NCBI RefSeq assembly: GCF_003334815.1
Contig: NZ_QOWO01000039.1
From: Escherichia coli
Lineage (GTDB): Bacteria; Pseudomonadota; Gammaproteobacteria; Enterobacterales; Enterobacteriaceae
DNA length: 34,477 nt
Reading direction: 5' to 3' (one strand)
How positions within the stretch are numbered: the stretch's first letter is position 1; each line of letters opens with the position of its first letter. Of this stretch, positions 1 through 34,477 are shown one piece after another. The notes under the pieces were generated by a model, which saw only the letters and a list, made by a program, of their open reading frames with translations, was not told the DNA's origin and ran no database searches. The position numbers and the translations under genes were made by a program.

Positions 1-211
1 ATCGACGATTGCTGGAAAGGCTGGGCCATACTCCTCCGGCAGAAGCAGAAAAAGCTTATTATGCTTCCATCGGAAACGATGATCTGGCAGCCTGAGTTCA
101 CAGATAAAACACTCTCCAGGAAACCCGGGGCGGTTCAGGAGGGCATCTTTAGTTACAAGCACCCAGACTAACCCTTGCCACAATAAACAGGCATGAACAC
201 TGACTGCTATT

Positions 212-331: not shown

Positions 332-1027
332 TTAGCAGTCATCAATAATCAAGTAAGTTGCATGTACTGGTCCATGCACACCAACAACTTTGATCAGTTC
401 TATATCTGCAGTAGAACTTGGGCCTCCAATCAGATTGATACAGGAAGGCAGTCGTTGTCCTTCCTGAGCCATTTCATGAAGTTTTTGCGCAAGCTGAGCC
501 ACTCGGGGGAGAATAGTGCTTTTGCGTAAAACAAATAATGATGCTTCAGGCAAAAGGCTTACTGAGCGCCCACGTTCTGGTGCGGAGAATAAGACAATGC
601 CTCCTGATTCTGTCAGCCCATACTCAGCGAAAACGACACCAGTTTTTGCCTTTTCAGCAAGATGGATATTTTCATCGCCCTTCTCCGGATCCCACAGAGC
701 AGCGTCCATTTCTTTTTGTAGCAATGGCGTAATCCCTGTATCGACCAGTCGTTGATCGTTGCTGATAATGACTGGCCCGGAACCGAACTTCCAACAGATG
801 TCTAAGGCTGTTGATGGTGCGTTCTCAGGCGACACCAGAACACACTCGGCAAGCATCACTTCCGAGGCAAATTTAATAAACGCCTCACAGCGTTGGTCTG
901 ATGTCAACTCTGTTAAACGTGTCGTAGCCAGCGTATTTACAGGCTCCGGCATTGCTTCGGGAATATGTCTTACTGGTCTGCCAAGCTTTCTGGCGATCGC
1001 AACGAGAAATTCCTCTCTGTTTTCCAT
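332..1027 (-). CDS. lutC: Lactate utilisation protein C (LutC/YkgG family)
   Basis: 231-aa ORF, last gene of a tightly spaced lutA-lutB-lutC arrangement; conserved C-terminal block ...AEYGLTESGG..LFS..ERGRS.SLLPE.SLF.LRKSTI.PR... resembles E. coli YkgG as recalled from memory. Confidence 0.85.
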   Translation of the reverse strand: MENREEFLVAIARKLGRPVRHIPEAMPEPVNTLATTRLTELTSDQRCEAFIKFASEVMLAECVLVSPENAPSTALDICWKFGSGPVIISNDQRLVDTGITPLLQKEMDAALWDPEKGDENIHLAEKAKTGVVFAEYGLTESGGIVLFSAPERGRSVSLLPEASLFVLRKSTILPRVAQLAQKLHEMAQEGQRLPSCINLIGGPSSTADIELIKVVGVHGPVHATYLIIDDC

Positions 1028-1030
1028 AAA

Positions 1031-2446
1031 TTACCCCTCCTTCTTATGTCGCTTGAACCAACTACGGAAGCTTTCTCCATCAGGTGATGGCAGGTCTCTG
1101 GCTTCAGTCCATTCTTTTATCGCTCCAACACTAATCGGCGTTTTTCCTTTCCTGATGAACAGACGGGCTGTTTTGGCCCCAGCAACCATACCTACCTTCC
1201 ACAACGCCGGATGGCTGTTTATGTAATTGAATGCTCTGGTTATACGGCGTTCCGTTAATGGTGTGATTTCAGACTCTGCCATAACCTGGCGATGTTTTTG
1301 TATTAGCGTTGCCAGAGGTATTTTTACAGGACATACCCCATTGCAGGCAGTGCACAATGAGCAGGCATAGGGTAAATCCTTAAAGTCTTCATATCCACCA
1401 AGCAATGGGGAAATAACCGCACCGATTGGCCCCGGGTAGATTGAACCATAACCATGCCCACCAATCTGACGATAAGCCGGGCAGGTATTAATGCAGGCAC
1501 CGCAGCGGATACATCGCAATACATCGCTGAATTCTGAGCCGAGAATCTCTGAACGCCCATTGTCAACAATAACGAGATGGAACTCTTCCGGACCATCAAC
1601 ATGTCCTTCTTCTCTGGGGCCTGTAAGCCAGGTGTTATAACCTGTCAGTCTCGCCCCGACAGCACTCCTTGCAAGCATGGTAATCAGAACATCCACCTCC
1701 TGGAATGTCGGAGCAATACGCTCCATACCCATAACAGCAATATGTGTTTTAGGTAATGTGGTGCACATCCGTGCGTTGCCTTCGTTTGTAACAAGGCAGA
1801 CTGACCCTGTTTCTGCAACGGCAAAGTTACACCCCGTTACGCCAACTTCAGCACTCAGAAAATCTTGTCTGATTTTCTCACGGATGAACAATGTCATTGC
1901 TTCTGGAGTTTCAGGCCCGTCATACCCCAGATGTTCATGTAAAACTCTGCGGATTTGATGGCGATCTTTATGTATTGCCGGCACAACCACATGCGATGGT
2001 GGCTCATGTGCTAGCTGAAGAATATATTCCCCAAGGTCCGTTTCAATCACGGGTATCCCGGCTTTCTGAAGAACGGCATTCATGCCAATTTCCTCAGTCA
2101 CCATTGATTTGGATTTAACAACCTTCCTGGCGTTTTTTTCTTTCGCCACCTTCAGTATGTAACTGGTTGCATCCTCTCTGGTACGGGCAAAATATACATG
2201 CCCGCCATTCGCAGTAACCTTTTCGGACAATTGATACAAATAAGCATCAAGATTTTCCAGAACATGCCGACGAATCTGTTCAGCTCGTGAACGCCATTCC
2301 TCCCAGTGTCCCAGTTCATCAACCATTTTCTGTCGATTAGTCCCTATGCGCTCCTGTGCGTTAGCCACAGCTTTTCGCATGATCGGGTCCTGAATCTGAA
2401 TACGGATACGCTCTTTAAACCTGATATCACTTGTTTTCAAAGACAT
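1031..2446 (-). CDS. lutB: Lactate utilisation protein B (LutB/YkgF family), 4Fe-4S iron-sulfur protein
   Basis: 471-aa ORF with ferredoxin-type cysteine motifs CIRCGACINTCP and CSLCTACNGVCP; 3-bp gap to lutC and 10-bp gap to lutA. Confidence 0.9.
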   Translation of the reverse strand: MSLKTSDIRFKERIRIQIQDPIMRKAVANAQERIGTNRQKMVDELGHWEEWRSRAEQIRRHVLENLDAYLYQLSEKVTANGGHVYFARTREDATSYILKVAKEKNARKVVKSKSMVTEEIGMNAVLQKAGIPVIETDLGEYILQLAHEPPSHVVVPAIHKDRHQIRRVLHEHLGYDGPETPEAMTLFIREKIRQDFLSAEVGVTGCNFAVAETGSVCLVTNEGNARMCTTLPKTHIAVMGMERIAPTFQEVDVLITMLARSAVGARLTGYNTWLTGPREEGHVDGPEEFHLVIVDNGRSEILGSEFSDVLRCIRCGACINTCPAYRQIGGHGYGSIYPGPIGAVISPLLGGYEDFKDLPYACSLCTACNGVCPVKIPLATLIQKHRQVMAESEITPLTERRITRAFNYINSHPALWKVGMVAGAKTARLFIRKGKTPISVGAIKEWTEARDLPSPDGESFRSWFKRHKKEG

Positions 2447-2456
2447 TCTGTTTACC

Positions 2457-3176
2457 TCATCTGTGCATCAGGACTTCAGCAATATGCATCACTTTTACAG
2501 GATGCCCTTCACGGTTAAGCCGACCGCCGATGTTTAGCAGGCAACTGGCGTCAGCCCCGATAAGAAAATCAGGTTTAACATCCATAATATGCCCGACTTT
2601 CTCTTTCACCATTTCACCAGAGATCTCCGCCATTTTTACAGAGAATGTGCCGCCAAACCCGCAGCACGTTTCCTGAGCGTGAAACGGCAGTAGCTCAAGC
2701 CCCTGTACATTCTCAAGTAGCAAAAGCGGCTCTCTGGTTACACCCAGCTTACGGGAAAGGCTGCAGGAGGGATGGTACACAGCGCGACCATTGAGTTTTG
2801 CCCCAACATCTGTGATGCCAAGATGATTTACTATAAATGATGTCAAATCATGCAGGCGTTCAGCCACTTTTTCAGCTCGTGCCGCCCACTCAGGTTCTTC
2901 ACTGAGATAGCGAGCGTAATTTTTTATCGTGTAAGTGCATGACCCGGCAGGAGATACTACCGGCCAGTCATTCTCTTCCAGCGAAGATATGAGATTTTTC
3001 ATGCCCGGGATGGCATCACGAACATAACCGCCATTTATCGCTGGCTGACCACAACATCCCTGCTTTTCGGGGAAATGGACATTGCAACCCAATTGCTCCA
3101 GTAACAGCACACTCTTTTGTGCCATCCGGGATTTAAACGCATCACCAATGCAGGTGACGAAAAAGTTAACATTCAC
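2457..3176 (-). CDS. lutA: Lactate utilisation protein A (LutA/YkgE family), cysteine-rich Fe-S oxidoreductase subunit
   Basis: 239-aa ORF; N-terminus MNVNFFVTCIGD... and CCG-type cysteine motifs (GCCGQP, CCGFGG) typical of YkgE/LutA; first of the three lut genes. Confidence 0.9.
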   Translation of the reverse strand: MNVNFFVTCIGDAFKSRMAQKSVLLLEQLGCNVHFPEKQGCCGQPAINGGYVRDAIPGMKNLISSLEENDWPVVSPAGSCTYTIKNYARYLSEEPEWAARAEKVAERLHDLTSFIVNHLGITDVGAKLNGRAVYHPSCSLSRKLGVTREPLLLLENVQGLELLPFHAQETCCGFGGTFSVKMAEISGEMVKEKVGHIMDVKPDFLIGADASCLLNIGGRLNREGHPVKVMHIAEVLMHR

Positions 3177-3225: not shown

Positions 3226-4782
3226 TCAGGCCATGAACAGGTGGTAGACAAGGCCTACTTTCAGTCCAAGAATAACAATATAAGCAAAGCAGTACTTCAG
3301 TGTTCCTGACATGATTACGCTGCCCTGACCATCCATACGGGTGGCTGAAACAGCGATAGCAATACTCTGAGGAGAAATCATTTTGCCGCCTGTTGCGCCA
3401 GATGTATTTGCGGCAGCCAGCCAGAGCGGGTCCACATGCAATTTTTCAGCCGCAGTAGTCTGCAATTTACCAAACAGAATGTTGGAGTTTGTGTCACTAC
3501 CAGTAACAAATGTACCAAGAGCGCCGATAACCGGAGCAATGAAGAGGTAGGCCCCACCAGTCAGATCCACAAGGCTCTGTGCCAGAGTGCCAATCAACCC
3601 ACAGACATCCATTACCGTTGCCATGGCAACAATCGCAGAAATGGCAATAATGGAGTTTTTAAGTTGTTTTACCGTGCTGACAAATACGTTTAACAGGCAT
3701 GACAGGGATGCTTTCTGTATCAAGCCGCCAATAACACTGGCAATGATAATCAGAACACCGGGGGTTGCGATCCATTCAATTTTCATCGACAGATTGCTGC
3801 CGTTACTCAGAGAGAAGGTGAGTGACGAGGCAATCTGAGACACTGCACTTTTTATCGTCGGGAACAGTGGAGAGCAAAGCAGAATGAACAGAAAGATCAG
3901 AATGTAGATTGAGCACGCACGTAACAACGCCCCACGAGAGTATGAAAGTGCGCTGGCGCTATCTGCTGAACTCTCAATAAGAAATTCAGGTTCTGTTTTT
4001 TCTTTACGGTTTTTTGCCATAAAGACTATAACGATCAGACTGACAAGACTTCCTGCGAAAGCCGGGAGCTCTGCGCCAAGATTAACAGCCACCAGATACT
4101 GAGGTATCAATGTGCTAATACCGCACATCAGGGTAATTAACCCTACGCCTCGTATAGCTTTCATACCTCCACCGATAATCGTGACGATAACGAAGGGGAG
4201 CAGAATGTTGAACAGTGCCAGCTGAAGAATAATCGTCCCGCTGAGTGTGGTTACAGGTAAATTAACTTGTTCAGCAAGCACGGAGACAGGTATACCGACT
4301 GCCCCAAACGCTGTAGGGACTGTATTAGCAACCAGTGATGCAATCGCTGCTTTTAGTGGGTTAAAGCCCAGTGCAATGAGTATACCTATGGGGATTGCTA
4401 CCGCTGTACCGTATCCGGCGGCCGCCTCAAGAAATCCGCCAAAACACCATGAGATAAGAAGAACCTGGATGCGTTTATCGTCACTAACGCTCGCCAGAAC
4501 ATTTCTCAGAATATCCATGCTTTTTGTCGCATTCATCAGGTTATAGCTGTAAATGGCAGCAAGGATGACAATCACAATCGGCCACAAACCTTTGATTGCG
4601 CCGTATACCACAGCAGATCCCATATCCATAACTGGCGTCTGCCAGAAAACCCCTCCAAGGATTAGCGTGAGCAGGAGAGTGCTAAGCACAGAATAGTGTA
4701 TGGGCATTTTGACTTTCAGAATCAAAATGATCATCGCCAGAAGGGGGGTAAGTCCCAGTAAAAAAAGCAGGTAATCGTGCAT
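3226..4782 (-). CDS. lctP: L-lactate permease (LctP family), polytopic inner-membrane transporter
   Basis: 518-aa highly hydrophobic ORF with multiple predicted transmembrane segments, directly upstream of lutABC on the same strand (49-bp gap); RBS aaggaa before the ATG. Confidence 0.8.
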   Translation of the reverse strand: MHDYLLFLLGLTPLLAMIILILKVKMPIHYSVLSTLLLTLILGGVFWQTPVMDMGSAVVYGAIKGLWPIVIVILAAIYSYNLMNATKSMDILRNVLASVSDDKRIQVLLISWCFGGFLEAAAGYGTAVAIPIGILIALGFNPLKAAIASLVANTVPTAFGAVGIPVSVLAEQVNLPVTTLSGTIILQLALFNILLPFVIVTIIGGGMKAIRGVGLITLMCGISTLIPQYLVAVNLGAELPAFAGSLVSLIVIVFMAKNRKEKTEPEFLIESSADSASALSYSRGALLRACSIYILIFLFILLCSPLFPTIKSAVSQIASSLTFSLSNGSNLSMKIEWIATPGVLIIIASVIGGLIQKASLSCLLNVFVSTVKQLKNSIIAISAIVAMATVMDVCGLIGTLAQSLVDLTGGAYLFIAPVIGALGTFVTGSDTNSNILFGKLQTTAAEKLHVDPLWLAAANTSGATGGKMISPQSIAIAVSATRMDGQGSVIMSGTLKYCFAYIVILGLKVGLVYHLFMA

Positions 4783-5360
4783 GTCATTTCCTTAAACGAA
4801 AACAAAGTCAGCATCATTACTGTGGTTATTGATAGTTTCCACGCCCTGTCGGACGAGAGTGTTTATTTATCAGGGGGAGAATGAGTATCGTCTCCAAAAT
4901 TGGGATGTTCTTATAAAGTATTTTTTAGTTTAAAAAATATAGCTGAATCGTTTCATTGTTATCTTCCATGAATAAATGTTATGAAATAATACTTTTTGGG
5001 TATTTTTTGTTTATGCGTGTAACACTTGTGTGCTATCCCGATATAACCTTAAGACTGGAGTTGCAACTGGAGCTCGTCGAAAATCAACGCCCAAATCCTC
5101 GACAAATGGAGAAAGAGAATGAGCAATATCACCAGGAATAGGTAAGCGTCAACGGGGATGAAATACGGGGATTACCGGAGTCAGAGCGTCTTGCCGTCAG
5201 GCAGCAGCGAAGCAAAGTGTTACTGACGTCACTGCATGAATGGATGGTGGAGAAGAATGGTACGCTGTCGAAAAAATGTAAGCGTCGTCTGAGTACCGTC
5301 TGGTCCCGAATCCAGGATCCTGTAACTTAAGCACCCACTTATTTTGCAGGTGGACACCTC

Positions 5361-5744
5361 ATGCGCGCTAAAGAAAGACTTCCCCGGAAACACTATTCCC
5401 CTGAATTCAAAATGGAACTGGTCAGGCTGGCTCTTGAAGAAGAAGGCAGTATTGCCGCACTGGCCCGGAAACATGACGTCAATGATAACCTGCTCTTTAA
5501 ATGGATAAGGCTCTGGCAGCGTGAAGGGCGGGTCTGTCGGCCCCGAAAAAACTCATCGTCGCTTCCTGCCCTGATACCCGTGCAGCTTCAGGCGGGCTCT
5601 TCTCTCCCAACCTTCGAACTACCATCCTGCTCTCCTCCCGCTACCTGCCACATAAAATGTCGGGGAGGAGAAATAACACTGACTCATCCCTCTGCTGAAC
5701 TCATGAGCACTGTCCTGCGCGAACTGATGCGGGGGCCTGTATGA
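5361..5744 (+). CDS. tnpA: IS66-family accessory protein OrfA (TnpA)
   Basis: 127-aa ORF, first in the IS66-type three-gene arrangement; its stop overlaps the orfB start (ATGA). Confidence 0.8.
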   Translation: MRAKERLPRKHYSPEFKMELVRLALEEEGSIAALARKHDVNDNLLFKWIRLWQREGRVCRPRKNSSSLPALIPVQLQAGSSLPTFELPSCSPPATCHIKCRGGEITLTHPSAELMSTVLRELMRGPV

Positions 5745-6088
5745 TAAATCTTCCCGCAGGCACAAAAATCTGGCTGGTTGCCGGTATCACCGATATGCGC
5801 AACGGCTTCAATGGCCTCGCCGCAAAGGTGCAGACCGCGCTGAAAGATGACCCGATGTCCGGCCACGTCTTCATCTTCCGGGGACGCAGCGGCAGTCAGG
5901 TAAAACTGCTCTGGTCCACCGGCGATGGTCTGTGCCTGCTGACAAAGCGACTAGAACGTGGTCGCTTCGCCTGGCCCTCAGCCCGCGATGGCAAAGTGTT
6001 CCTGACGCCGGCGCAACTGGCGATGCTGATGGAAGGTATCGACTGGCGACAGCCAAAGCGGTTACTGACATCCCTGACCATGTTGTAG
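5741..6088 (+). CDS. tnpB: IS66-family accessory protein OrfB (TnpB)
   Basis: 115-aa ORF translationally coupled to orfA; precedes the transposase gene. Confidence 0.8.
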   Translation: MINLPAGTKIWLVAGITDMRNGFNGLAAKVQTALKDDPMSGHVFIFRGRSGSQVKLLWSTGDGLCLLTKRLERGRFAWPSARDGKVFLTPAQLAMLMEGIDWRQPKRLLTSLTML

Positions 6089-6137
6089 CGCTCTTTATCC
6101 TGGTTGTCGCAGAATAAGCCTGGTAAAATACAGGCTT

Positions 6138-7672
6138 ATGAACGACACCTCTTCTGACGACATCCTTCTGCTGAAACAGCGCCTGGCCGAACAGGAAGCG
6201 TTGATCCACGCCCTGCAGGAAAAGCTGAGCAACCGGGAACGCGAAATAGACCATCTGCAGGCGCAACTGGATAAGCTGCGCCGGATGAACTTCGGCAGTC
6301 GTTCCGAAAAGGTATCCCGCGTATCGCGCAAATGGAAGCTGACCTGAACCTGCTGCAGCAGGAAAGCGATACGCTGACCGGCCGGGTGGATGACCCGGCA
6401 GTGCAGCGCCCGCTGCGTCAGACCCGCACCCGCAAACCGTTCCCTGAGTCACTCCCACGGGATGAGAAGCGGCTGCTGCCGACTGAGCCGTGTTGCCCGG
6501 AGTGCGGTGGTTCGCTGAGTTACCTGGGTGAGGATGCCGCCGAACAGCTGGAGCTGATGCGCAGCGCCTTCCGGGTTATCCGGACAGTCCGTGAAAAGCA
6601 TGCCTGCCGTCGGTGCGATCGCATCGTTCAGGCCCCGGCTCCTTCGCGCCCCATCGAACGGGGGATCGCCGGACCGGGGCTGCTGGCCCGAGTGCTGACC
6701 TCAAAGTATGCAGAGCACATACCGCTGTATCGCCAGTCGGAGATCTATGCCCGCCAGGGTGTAGTGTTGAGTCGTTCTGTACTGTCGGGCTGGGTGGATG
6801 CGTGTTGTCGTCTGCTGGCACCGCTGGATGAAGCCCTTCAGCACTATGTCCTGACCGACGGCAAACTCCATGCTGACGATATGCCTGTCCCGGTGCTGTT
6901 GCCGGGCAATAAGAAGACGAAGACCGGGCGCTTATGGACGTACGTTCGAGACGACCGCAACGCCGGATCAGCGCTGGCCCCCGCAGTGTGGTTCGCTTAC
7001 AGCCCGGACAGAAAAGGTATCCACCCTCAGACCCATCTTGCAGGCTTCAGTGGCGTACTGCAGGCTGATGCCTACGCCGGGTTCAACGAGCTCTACCGCG
7101 ACGGCCATATAAAGGAAGCCGCGTGCTGGGCCCATGCCCGCCGAAAAATCCACGATGTTCACGTCCGTACCCCGTCAGCCCTGACGGAGGAGGCGCTGAA
7201 ACGGATCGGCGAGCTGTATGCCATCGAGTCGGAGCTCAGAGGTAAAAGAGCAGAGGAACGGCAGGCAGTCCGGCACCAAAAAGTGCTGCCGCTGCTGGCG
7301 TCACTGGAGGGGTGGCTGCGGGAGAAACAGAAAACCCTCTCAAGGCACTCAGAACTGGCGAAGGCGTTCGGGTATGCGCTGAACCAGTGGCCGGCGCTGA
7401 CCCGCTATGCAGAAGATGGCTGGGTGGAGGTGGATAATAACATTGCCGAAAACGCCCTACGACTGGTCAGTCTGGGGAGAAAAAACTGGCTGTTCTTCGG
7501 CTCGGATCATGGTGGTGAGCGCGGTGCGTCACTGTACAGTCTTATCGGGACGTGCAAATTAAACGGCGTGGATCCGGAACGCTATCTGCATCATGTACTT
7601 GATGTCATCGCCGACTGGCCTGTGAACCGGGTGGGTGCTCTGCTCCCGTGGCGGGTTACTCTGCCTGCCTGA
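6138..7672 (+). pseudogene. tnpC: IS66-family transposase (TnpC) split by a frameshift near 6330-6347
   Basis: Track ORFs 6138..6347 (N-terminal coiled-coil/leucine-zipper-like segment) and 6332..7672 (zinc-finger-like CxxC...CxxC, catalytic core, C-terminal ...LLPWRVTLPA) overlap in different frames and together make one IS66-type transposase. Confidence 0.75.
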
Positions 7673-7713
7673 CCAGCTTCACTTCGTCAATACGGTTCTC
7701 ACTGCACGCTTAC

Positions 7714-8047
7714 GAAAAAATCCAGACTGGGCGAAGCGTTCAGCTATGTACTGAATCAGTGGGATGCCCTCTGTTATTACAGTGATGACGGTCTGGCGGA
7801 GGCGGATAATAATGCTGCGGAAAGAGCGCTTCGTGCAGTCTGTCTCGGAAAGAAAAACTTTATGTTCTTTGGCAGCGATCACGGCGGCGAGCGTGGAGCA
7901 CTGTTGTACGGGCTGATCGGCACCTGCCGTCTGAACGGTATCGATCCGGAAGCGTATCTGCGCCATATCCTGAGCGTACTGCCAGAATGGCCTTCCAACC
8001 GAGTTGATGAACTCCTGCCATGGAACGTAGTACTCACCAATAAATAA
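7714..8047 (+). pseudogene. Truncated IS66-family transposase, C-terminal ~110 codons only
   Basis: In-frame translation of 7714-8047 matches the C-terminal region of IS66 TnpC; there is no N-terminal part and no orfA/orfB upstream. Confidence 0.7.
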
Positions 8048-8077
8048 GCGTCAATACGGTGCTCCGTTGACGCTTAC
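7714..8077 (+). mobile_element. 3' remnant of a second IS66-family element: partial transposase C-terminus plus palindromic right terminal repeat
   Basis: Starts immediately after the first element's right end; encodes ...FMFFGSDHGGERGALLYGLIGTCRLNGIDPEAYLRHILSVLPEWPSNRVDELLPWNVVLTNK, diverged from the intact copy's C-terminus; ends in a repeat whose reverse complement is gtaagcgtcaacgg... Confidence 0.7.
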
Positions 8078-8125
8078 AGTTTTTTCAGAAGACGGCAAAG
8101 TAGAGATGGCTGGTTCAGGTTCAGA

Positions 8126-8270
8126 GCATGAGTTTCCCCGGTGTGACGGGCATGGCGGGGCGGATTTTGCAGATACAAAAGACGTAAAAAAACCGACTGG
8201 TGAGGCCGGCTTTTTTACTGTTACGCTACAAAGTTGATGACTCTGACCAGAAAAGAGCTGTCTATAACTG
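8126..8270. repeat. Repeat family copy A (~145 bp) with a 19-codon ORF (8128-8187, MSFPGVTGMAGRILQIQKT) and a terminator-like hairpin
   Basis: Aligned by eye to copy C over about 145 bp from catgagt...cccggt...ggcatgg.gggcggatt through the hairpin to gaaaag...tct. Confidence 0.6.
8186..8216. terminator. Bidirectional intrinsic-terminator-like hairpin (A7-ccgac-tggtgag-gccggc-T6) in repeat copy A
   Basis: GC stem flanked by an A-run on one side and a T-run on the other, so it can terminate on either strand. Confidence 0.5.
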
Positions 8271-8554
8271 ACGCTAAAAATGATAATTTGTTCTACCTGA
8301 TTAATGCAACATGCCATAAGTTTACGGGAAAGGCTGACCACCTGATATTGTTGCAAAATACGAAAGTCGTCAAAATCGCGGTGGGGAGCTTGAGGCTGTA
8401 AGCTGAAAGCGTTTGTGAAAGCCCCGGGAGATTGTTCTATCAATCAACCAAGGGCTCTACTGTAATGCCTAGACAACATTATAGTAGCCCGCTGACGTCC
8501 TCCACGCCAGAGGGAGCTTGCTACGTACAGCTTGTCGTTACTCAGAAGTAATAA

Positions 8555-8625
8555 ATGTAAAAAAACCGACTGATGAGGTCGGTTTTCTTACTGTTCCGTT
8601 ACAGAGTTGGTGGCCCTGACTGGAG
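8555..8625. repeat. Repeat family copy B (partial: hairpin plus conserved downstream segment only)
   Basis: gtaaaaaaaccgactgatgaggtcggttttcttactgttccgttacagagttggtgg matches the terminator-proximal part of copies A and C; the small-ORF part is absent. Confidence 0.5.
8559..8589. terminator. Terminator-like hairpin in repeat copy B (A7-ccgac-tgatgag-gtcgg-TTTTCTT)
   Basis: Perfect 5-bp GC-rich stem with flanking A-run and T-rich run. Confidence 0.4.
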
Positions 8626-8745
8626 GAAATCTCTTTTCAGCTAACGTTCTTATAATAGTGTTCTGTTCATTTGATAACAACCACCCTTGTAATCCGCAGG
8701 TTAGCACTGTCTGGCGACACTTCTGTCGTGATGACGGTAACCAGA

Positions 8746-9130: not shown

Positions 9131-9515
9131 TGTTTTTTCCTTTTTGTGTTGAAAATAATTAATGCCAGAGCACAGCGAAAATAATGAATGCGCTGGCTGT
9201 GATAATTGCGATTTTCTCCCATATGATATTTTTCTCATGGGGGTTTCTACGGAGATTATTTCTTCGCATTGAGATACCGGTATTCATGTTTTATCTTGGA
9301 CTTTTGTTTTGTTGTCTGTCTGGCAGGCTGTTCTGCGCCCGTTTGTGACAAGGTTAGCTTATGGGGTTAAATGGTCACGGACATCATGCGGACGGTTCCC
9401 TGTCACATGCCATCTGGTTTTTTCATTCAAATTGAGAGATATTGCTAAGTTGAGTCGCTTGCGATAGTGGACTCCTGTTTGTAAGTGAGTGCCATTGTTT
9501 ATTTCATGAAGAGGA

Positions 9516-33847: not shown

Positions 33848-34414
33848 TTACCAGGGTAATAAAGACGTATTAAATAAGCTAACAGGTAGTATTTGCCCTG
33901 TAATAAGGTTTCCGGCAAGGCCAGGTCTCAACGTAACGCGTCGCAAAGACATTGTTGTATTCTGCCTGGTTGTATATTCAGTTAACCATTTTCTTTTTTC
34001 ATCGTTCAGAAGTGTTGGTGATAATGATAGTGCCGGATATATTACAGAGCCATTTATTTCTTTTTCCTGTCTCAATATTACCCCGCAATATTCTCTTTTC
34101 GTGTTTCCTGCGAAGGGGAAACTATGCCAGAAAATAACTTCAGTGTTGCTGCTATCATTAATAAGCATTCTGAAATTATGAGCAGTATCTGGCCATTCAC
34201 CGGACAACGCTATCGGATAGTTTTCATGGCCATTCAGCCAGTCCGGATTGAGATTAAAACATTCAGCAAGATGTTCGAGAGCGTCAACTGAAAGATAGTC
34301 TGCAAGTCTGGCCGGGTCCTGTATTACCGTGGAGCGGATATTCCATGGCGACAGCAATGTTGCCAGTAATGGCGCATTTATATCATGCGACAGCATGATG
34401 GGTAATGACTCCAA
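33848..34414 (-). CDS. Hypothetical protein upstream of the tra block; start uncertain (TTG at 34414 or internal ATG)
   Basis: 188-aa track ORF on the same strand as the tra genes; no recognisable motif. Confidence 0.3.
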   Translation of the reverse strand: MESLPIMLSHDINAPLLATLLSPWNIRSTVIQDPARLADYLSVDALEHLAECFNLNPDWLNGHENYPIALSGEWPDTAHNFRMLINDSSNTEVIFWHSFPFAGNTKREYCGVILRQEKEINGSVIYPALSLSPTLLNDEKRKWLTEYTTRQNTTMSLRRVTLRPGLAGNLITGQILPVSLFNTSLLPW

Positions 34415-34477
34415 CTTATTGATAGTGTTTTATGTTCAGATAATGCCCGATGACTTTGTCATGCAGCTCCACCGATT

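Follow-up and report, generated by a model that had tools for sequence, protein, structure and literature searches.

Members of the IS66 family, such as IS66, IS679, ISCro1, IS682 and ISEc23, carry the genes tnpA, tnpB and tnpC in this order with an ATGA overlap, and their TnpC contains LZ, zinc-finger, DDE_Tnp_IS66 and C-terminal domains. The elements end in imperfect terminal repeats led by GTAAGCG, and 8-bp target duplications are typical of the family and of ISCro1 (PMC3281130, PMC12115866). In composite transposons and in ISEcp1-style units with a surrogate right end, passenger genes lie between the left end of an insertion sequence and a remote, properly oriented IS-type right end, and one target duplication surrounds the whole unit and matches a precise empty site. 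No description of a surrogate-end or composite unit of the IS66 family was found in the literature searched, the coverage of which was incomplete. A literature search yielded no specific report of lut genes in IncI1 plasmids, and chromosomal lutABC islands have been described in E. coli ST127 (PMC9769692). Here, we analysed a stretch of 34,477 nucleotides from an Escherichia coli contig, NZ_QOWO01000039.1 (the window), and found that one region forms the right-hand terminus of a composite transposon of the IS66 family, with lactate-utilisation genes as its cargo. The features are listed in Table 1, in which the annotation of the cargo genes was taken from NZ_CP024481.1 (10,000 is subtracted from the locus coordinate to obtain that of the window).

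Table 1. Features of the composite unit and of the nested IS66-family elements, in window coordinates
Feature	Position	Strand	Remarks
lutC, composite-unit cargo	332-1027	-	
lutB, composite-unit cargo	1031-2446	-	
lutA-type Fe-S protein, composite-unit cargo	2457-3176	-	
lldP, L-lactate permease gene, composite-unit cargo	3226-4782	-	
Left part of IS682 stump, 136 bp	5142-5277	+	tnpC coding sequence from 5156 on
Left copy of 8-bp target duplication GAAAAAAT, inner element	5270-5277	.	identical to 7714-7721
Inner IS66-family insertion sequence, 2,436 bp, tnpA-tnpB-tnpC	5278-7713	+	IRL 5278-5299, IRR 7692-7713
tnpA, 127 aa	5361-5744	+	NF047595, 75.7 bits (cut-off 74)
tnpB, 115 aa, IS66-family accessory protein	5741-6088	+	NF033819, 119.1 bits (cut-off 50)
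tnpC pseudogene	6138-7672	+	ORFs 6138-6347 (69 aa) and 6332-7672 (446 aa)
Right copy of 8-bp target duplication GAAAAAAT, inner element	7714-7721	.	identical to 5270-5277
Right part of IS682 stump, 356 bp	7722-8077	+	tnpC 3' end, stop 8045-8047; IRR ends 8077
Right copy of 8-bp duplication AGTTTTTT flanking the whole composite unit	8078-8085	.	

IS66-type termini (GTAAGCG.../...CGCTTAC) were found at 5142, 7713 and 8077, and a second GTAAGCG terminus was found at 5278. A preliminary description of this DNA had proposed two nested IS66 members, the first of which ended at about 7713. Two different members are indeed nested here and the right end at 7713 was placed correctly, but the left boundary of the inner element is 5278 and not 5142. 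The intact copies of this element are 2,437 bp long and all start at the GTAAGCG terminus that matches 5278; at least 2,954 E. coli records contain a copy covering at least 80% of it. The two 22-nt arms of its imperfect terminal repeats are 77% complementary, and the GTAAGCG and ACCGT blocks within them are common to ISCro1-like and IS682 ends. The GAAAAAAT duplication is perfect and exactly abuts the element on both sides (at fixed positions, 8/8 identity would arise by chance with a probability of about 1.5e-5), and other copies were flanked by the 8-bp duplications CATTCTCT and GTTAGGCC. The insertion of the inner element was thus a clean, normal transposition with intact ends.

The inner element resembles the described IS66-family members in its three-gene order, with the tnpA stop and the tnpB start overlapping as ATGA at 5741-5744, in the DDE domain, in its terminal repeats and in the 8-bp duplication. 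Its tnpC matched NF033517 with 462 bits (cut-off 180), and the intact 511-aa TnpC homologue matched PF03050 (E = 1.7e-103) as well as PF13007, PF13005 and PF13817. It differs from IS682 and ISEc23, with which it shares only ~65% nucleotide identity, and from the family in general by a 1-bp deletion in tnpC. The PGAP annotation and cluster names gave only 'IS66 family transposase', without a specific IS name. Nesting of the inner element in a full-length ISEc23 was considered and rejected, as the two were merely side by side in the candidate plasmids. A promoter and terminator scan of 4700-8400 gave nothing exceeding the shuffled expectation.

The target of the inner element was a 492-bp stump of IS682, which is now split into two parts. 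The preliminary description had recognised the 3' piece of a second, diverged tnpC after the first element, and this was borne out: the piece begins at 7722, has its stop at 8047 and is followed by a terminal repeat ending at 8077, and it shares ~65% nucleotide identity with the inner element. When the inner element was excised in silico, the two parts rejoined into one open reading frame, the 149-aa product of which matched the C-terminal third of NF033517 (E = 9e-40). Positions 15-492 of the stump are identical (478/478) to the 3' end, including the IRR, of the IS682 copy in E. coli JP538, and the stump is 98.8% identical to ISEc23. Compared to the complete IS682, a 2,533-bp element of the ISEc23 group, the stump lacks ~2,040 bp comprising tnpA, tnpB and two thirds of tnpC from its start. 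The left tip of 14 bp, GTAAGCGTCAACGG, repeats the right tip of the stump perfectly in inverted orientation, and 7 of these 14 bases deviate from the colinear IS682 sequence. This tip matched the IS682 right tip at 14/14 positions and the IS682 left tip at only 12/14.

Two E. coli chromosomes, NZ_CP027457.1 and NZ_CP027310.1, contain the 492-bp stump uninterrupted, with 99.6% identity and adjacent to the same lldP-lutABC genes. Both copies are at the same lldP-linked locus and no further uninterrupted copy was found; a search for plasmids in which the stump lacks the inner element found none. Because the uninterrupted stump adjoins the same lactate genes in both chromosomes, the deletion that created it preceded the insertion of the inner element. 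The earlier proposal of one IS inserting into another followed by deletion was therefore right about the nested insertion and wrong about the order. The stump is flanked by AGGAATAG and AGTTTTTT in the plasmid and by AGGAATAG and CCTTTGCC in the chromosomes, and it has no target duplication of its own in either setting. It is short, encodes no complete protein and has perfect 14-bp inverted repeats at its ends, as MITEs do, but it was rejected as a MITE since it lacks its own duplication and occurs in one locus lineage rather than as dispersed copies.

The right end of the stump is probably a functional transposon boundary. The composite unit extends over 11,760 bp from an ISCro1-like left end, which lies beyond the window, to the stump right end at 8077. 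In NZ_LT985321.1, the left copy of AGTTTTTT abuts the ISCro1-like IRL at window coordinate ~-6302. The empty site with a single AGTTTTTT matched at 200/200 positions in eight IncI1 plasmids, and 1,363 plasmids covered at least 80% of the empty-site probe. More than 1,300 IncI1 plasmids thus have this site intact, and ColIb-P9 is among the IncI1 plasmids with the empty site. The homology between chromosome and plasmid begins exactly at the ISCro1-like IRR. As in composite transposons and ISEcp1-style units, the ends of the unit are correctly oriented around the passengers, but here they derive from two different members of the IS66 family, and an orphan stump provides one of them; the IS682 IRR and the ISCro1-like IRR agree at ~20/27 positions by manual count. 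The lactate unit also differs from these systems in being documented in a single transposition event. The ISCro1-cargo junction was present in 4 of 20,395 E. coli records, and no further insertion sites of the composite unit were found among these records. Since all of the junction records represent one IncI1 plasmid lineage, the use of mixed ends rests on a single event. The tnpC of the ISCro1-like element is likewise frameshifted in present-day plasmids, and all three IS66-family transposase genes of the unit are now defective. We favour, with some reservation, the explanation that a transposase of the IS66 family, in the simplest case the one encoded by the adjacent ISCro1-like element, bypassed its own right end for the orphan IS682-stump end ~9 kb downstream and thereby captured the chromosomal lldP-lutABC genes onto an IncI1 conjugative plasmid.

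The AGTTTTTT duplication could instead have arisen from the insertion of a lone IS66-family element, the interior of which was later swapped by homologous recombination with a chromosomal region between related elements. IS66-family copies are abundant in E. coli, and homologous recombination between plasmids through ISCro1 copies is known (PMC12115866). However, the two ends of the unit belong to different members, ISCro1-like and IS682, and diverge directly after the GTAAGCG tip, so no single progenitor could supply both. A crossover would also be needed within a few bases of each terminus, and the empty-site search did not reveal a lone element at this position in any IncI1 plasmid. We thus consider recombinational replacement very unlikely and retain transposition of the whole unit.

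The tnpC of the inner element is split into two frames, and the preliminary description had located the break near 6330-6347. The split is real, but that stretch is merely the overlap of the two frames. Alignment to an intact copy showed that the lesion is a 1-bp deletion, one C lost between 6319 and 6320 (CCCGCCGT to CCCGCGT). According to the Pfam matches of the intact 511-aa protein, the break, at codon 61/62, interrupts the LZ_Tnp_IS66 domain, which covers residues 39-110. PGAP labels this tnpC 'frameshifted', and RefSeq already marks these nested, decayed insertion sequences as pseudogenes. Seven independent plasmid records, representing different strains, hosts and countries and one other species, share the deletion. 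A 4.1-kb sequence was identical in NZ_CP024481.1, NZ_LT985321.1 and CP057972.1 and had one difference in NZ_CP057464.1 (E. fergusonii), and NZ_CP123239.1 had the same deletion with one adjacent SNP. Among E. coli complete-genome records, the deleted allele was found in 3 and the intact allele in 482.

These numbers bear on two other explanations for the split gene. The frameshift might be tolerated or programmed, with a working transposase made either by -1 slippage of the ribosome within the overlap (6320-6347) or by re-initiation at the ATG at 6332. The 446-aa open reading frame does have complete zinc-finger, DDE and C-terminal domains and holds the whole NF033517 model, and the two frames share a 16-nt overlap. 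However, inspection of 6310-6347 revealed neither a slippery heptamer nor a Shine-Dalgarno sequence, and the break removes half of the leucine-zipper domain. Nearly all copies of the element encode a single uninterrupted 511-aa TnpC, which argues that the split is not its normal design. Programmed frameshifting was rejected on the lack of a slippery site and the unbroken gene in the 482 records, and we regard a tolerated frameshift in either form as highly improbable. Even less credible is an assembly or sequencing error in an inner element that is in fact intact and active, which the preliminary description had allowed for. A single-base deletion is the commonest type of assembly error, but the recurrence in seven plasmid records of such varied origin speaks against it, as does the record with an extra adjacent SNP, which is expected of an inherited allele. 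In addition, the site CCCGCCG is not a long homopolymer, and the intact allele was assembled correctly in 482 records. The tnpC frameshift is thus an inherited mutation, carried by seven plasmid records and contrasting with the intact allele in 482. The frameshifted copy, already suspected of being inactive, is probably non-autonomous, and it could be mobilised in trans because both of its ends are intact.

The least credible alternative, to which we give almost no weight, is that one IS66-family element at 5142-7713 abuts a 5'-truncated second element at 7714-8077 after an insertion and a later deletion that erased the target duplications: IS66-type termini do lie at 5142 and 7713, and the 8-bp flanks, AGGAATAG before 5142 and AGTTTTTT after 8077, differ from each other, but the start common to all intact 2,437-bp copies is at 5278, 5156-5277 is IS682 tnpC sequence foreign to the inner element, a perfect duplication surrounds 5278-7713, and the 492-bp target is known uninterrupted elsewhere. 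Nested IS66-family copies are easily mis-bounded because all of their termini begin with GTAAGCG. Here, the misplaced left boundary had hidden both target duplications, and the earlier statement that neither boundary has an 8-bp duplication does not hold, with GAAAAAAT flanking the inner element and AGTTTTTT at the stump end being repeated beyond the window. As a lesson of method, correct placement of the boundary recovers both.

A history of four events (stump deletion, unit transposition, inner insertion and 1-bp deletion in tnpC) very probably gives the best explanation of the region. First, an IS682 copy near the chromosomal lldP-lutABC island would have lost ~2,040 bp internally, leaving the 492-bp stump between 14-bp perfect inverted repeats. 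An ISCro1-like element would then have inserted on the far side of the lactate genes, and transposition via its left end and the right end of the stump may have carried the entire unit into an IncI1 plasmid, where it entered the spacer between trbA and excA, duplicating AGTTTTTT. Before or after this transfer, the common 2,437-bp IS66-family element would have entered the stump, duplicating GAAAAAAT. Finally, its tnpC would have lost one C in the N-terminal leucine-zipper domain, and this mutation would have been passed down through the whole plasmid lineage. We observed directly the two duplications, the two empty sites, the stump in uninterrupted form, and the loss of one base from tnpC together with its distribution; we infer the order of the events, which transposase acted on the mixed ends, and that the frameshifted copy is immobile on its own but mobilisable in trans.

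Nested, decayed insertion sequences such as these are routine, ordinary mobile-element biology. In addition, the IS682 stump delimits on one side a composite transposon that has no name yet and is 11.8 kb long (14.4 kb in the plasmid of ECOR 3), which took a lactate-utilisation operon from a chromosomal island to IncI1 conjugative plasmids. Plasmids with the unit occur in E. coli and E. fergusonii of cattle and human origin. The cargo is metabolic and not resistance, and mixed IS66-family ends were apparently used. If the proposed bypass of the ISCro1-like right end is true, the unit would exemplify, within the IS66 family, the surrogate-end transposition that is well known for ISEcp1.

IS66-type termini (GTAAGCG.../...CGCTTAC) were found at 5142, 5278, 7713 and 8077. 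The preliminary description had correctly recognised those at 5142, 7713 and 8077 but had missed the one at 5278. In intact copies, the complete element measures 2,437 bp and starts at the equivalent of 5278, and thus the inner element in the window spans 5278-7713 (2,436 bp). The same 8 bp, GAAAAAAT, flanked this element on both sides, at 5270-5277 and 7714-7721, and other copies were flanked by CATTCTCT in one case and GTTAGGCC in another. The earlier claim that no 8-bp target duplication was present was therefore wrong, and the duplication had been missed because the left end was placed at 5142. An 8-bp duplication is the norm in the IS66 family (PMC3281130; for ISCro1, see PMC12115866). 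Judged by its sequence, the inner element has every feature expected of an IS66-family member. On plasmid pGE3 (locus L003, 1501-6476), an element of the inner type and a full ISEc23 were arranged head to tail with 7 bp between them; the pair shares the target GATTATT, suggesting that one target site was reused by different IS66-family members. On pMB7355_2 (NZ_CP123239.1, locus L011, 4636/4637), the right end of the inner element abuts a thermonuclease gene and not the right half of the IS682 stump described below, which points to a deletion or rearrangement next to this end.

When 5278-7721 was removed, 5142-5277 and 7722-8077 joined into a 492-bp sequence whose reading frame runs through unbroken and corresponds to the last third of an IS66-family transposase, at the C-terminus (NF033517, E = 9e-40). 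Positions 15-492 of this stump were identical (478/478) to the 3' end of an IS682 copy, named by PGAP 'IS66-like element IS682 family transposase', and 98.8% identical to ISEc23. Positions 1-14 (GTAAGCGTCAACGG) differed from the colinear IS682 sequence at 7 of 14 bases and formed a perfect inverted copy of the stump's own right tip; the left tip of IS682 is GTAAGCGTAAACTG. E. coli 88-3493 and 2014C-4135 carry the 492-bp stump uninterrupted in their chromosomes (99.6% identity), each with the left flank seen on the plasmid and adjoining the same DUF6882-lutCBA-lldP genes. Thus, the stump predates the arrival of the inner element, and the insertion was clean. This reverses the order proposed earlier, insertion and then deletion, since the deletion came first. 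The stump was ruled out as a MITE, as it lacks its own duplication and is confined to one locus. The IS682 right end (8043-8077) holds an internal palindrome (AAGCGTCAA ... TTGACGCTT), so that, about 20 bp in from the end, the terminal tip is nearly repeated in direct orientation. A weak sigma-70-like match on the minus strand at 5125-5152 (TTGACG, 16-nt spacer, GATATT, 9/12) is directed towards lldP, with the -35 hexamer within the left tip of the stump; such sites were not more numerous in the scanned region (4700-8400) than in shuffled sequence.

Alignment with an intact copy showed that the inner element tnpC had lost one C between 6319 and 6320 (CCCGCCGT to CCCGCGT). The frame was thus broken as first described, but the lesion lies at 6319/6320 and the overlap at 6332-6347 is merely a downstream consequence. 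Intact TnpC has 511 aa, and the break falls at codon 61/62, within the leucine-zipper domain. With a 61-nt probe spanning the site, the deleted allele was found in 3 complete E. coli genome records versus 482 with the intact allele. In the plasmid collection, NZ_CP024481.1, NZ_LT985321.1 and CP057972.1 were identical across window 4600-8700, NZ_CP057464.1 (E. fergusonii) differed at one position, NZ_CP043827.1 was fully identical across the part that matches, and NZ_CP123239.1 carried the deletion together with a neighbouring C-to-T change. The lesion is common to seven independent assemblies; it is a mutation inherited within this plasmid lineage, not the sequencing error considered before. 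Neither a slippery sequence nor a ribosome-binding site for programmed recoding was found at the break. The frameshifted copy is most likely non-autonomous, in agreement with the earlier reading as probably inactive. Since both of its ends are preserved, it could still be mobilised in trans by an intact copy present in the same cell.

TnpC domains and the IS3-family end in the window
Feature	Window position	Residues of intact TnpC	Strand
LZ_Tnp_IS66 domain		39-110	
zf-IS66 domain		118-161	
DDE_Tnp_IS66 domain		175-461	
DDE_Tnp_IS66_C domain		468-505	
IS3-family element, right end (whole element 1,310 bp)	1-137		

The window was nearly identical to the E. coli ECOR 3 plasmid RCS85_pI (NZ_LT985321.1): a 1-base indel, an extra T at window position 9133, was the sole difference in the first 10 kb. 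With plasmid unnamed2 of E. coli 2011C-4315 (NZ_CP024481.1) it shared 99.99% identity across 138-34400. These two conjugative plasmids are of the IncI1 type, and each has trbABC, excA and traE to traY. The last 77 bases (34401-34477) diverged from NZ_CP024481.1, where traE-region sequence stands, and resemble an IS1 terminal repeat (GGTAATGACTCCAACTTATTGATAG...). The IS3-family element at the window start, presumably IS629/IS1203 by its termini (TGAACCGCCCCGGG...), has a 4-bp duplication, GGAG, with the right copy at 138-141. Thus, IS copies bound the window on both sides.

Beyond the lactate genes and outside the window, a 2,703-bp ISCro1-like element was present in NZ_CP024481.1 and NZ_LT985321.1. 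The 8 bp to the left of its IRL, AGTTTTTT, are the same as window 8078-8085, directly right of the stump IRR, a second duplication that had gone unseen. A 200-bp empty-site probe, made by joining the 100 bp up to the ISCro1-like element, with a single AGTTTTTT as their last bases, to the 100 bp after the right-hand AGTTTTTT, matched 200/200 in eight IncI1 plasmids and with at least 99% identity in 280 plasmids; at least 80% was covered in 1,363, including ColIb-P9. The repeat on both sides and the empty site indicate that the whole unit of 11,760 bp, bounded by the ISCro1-like IRL and the stump IRR, entered the IncI1 backbone in one piece with an 8-bp duplication. The ECOR 3 unit is 14.4 kb due to two later IS3-family insertions of 1,310 bp each. 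The plasmid and the chromosomal island become homologous precisely at the ISCro1-like IRR, which fits an ancestor where ISCro1 would have inserted beside the chromosomal lactate island, followed by transposition with the ISCro1 IRL and the stump IRR as ends. The ISCro1-like and IS682 right ends have the GTAAGCG tip and a ACCGTATTGA block in common, making it plausible that one transposase recognises both. A single transposition event of the unit is visible, and the inner element was already in every plasmid copy.

Nested insertions among IS66-family members are common. The IS682 reference copy (locus L009) is itself inserted in another IS66-family tnpC, and RefSeq labels the two transposase genes here 'frameshifted' and 'incomplete'. 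Together with the family features of the inner element, this makes the nested, decayed arrangement as such ordinary. Only the mixed-end IS66-family composite unit with lactate-utilisation genes is mildly new; no description of one was found in the papers searched. lutABC islands in chromosomes have already been described (PMC9769692). IS66-family debris is scattered through the cargo region: a solo right terminus (...CCGTATTGACGCTTAC) without a transposase gene lies at 206-245, between the IS3-family end and lutC, and outside the window, to the left of the DUF6882 gene, there is a short ISEc23-like piece of a tnpC 3' end (about 9190-9290 in locus L005). In all three IS66-family elements of the unit the transposase gene is now defective: a frameshift disrupts the ISCro1-like tnpC, which in the ECOR 3 copy (NZ_LT985321.1) is additionally split outside the window by a second, inverted IS3-family copy with the duplication GCG, the inner element tnpC is frameshifted as well, and of IS682 only the stump is left. 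The unit has become a fossil, spread today by conjugation of its host plasmid.
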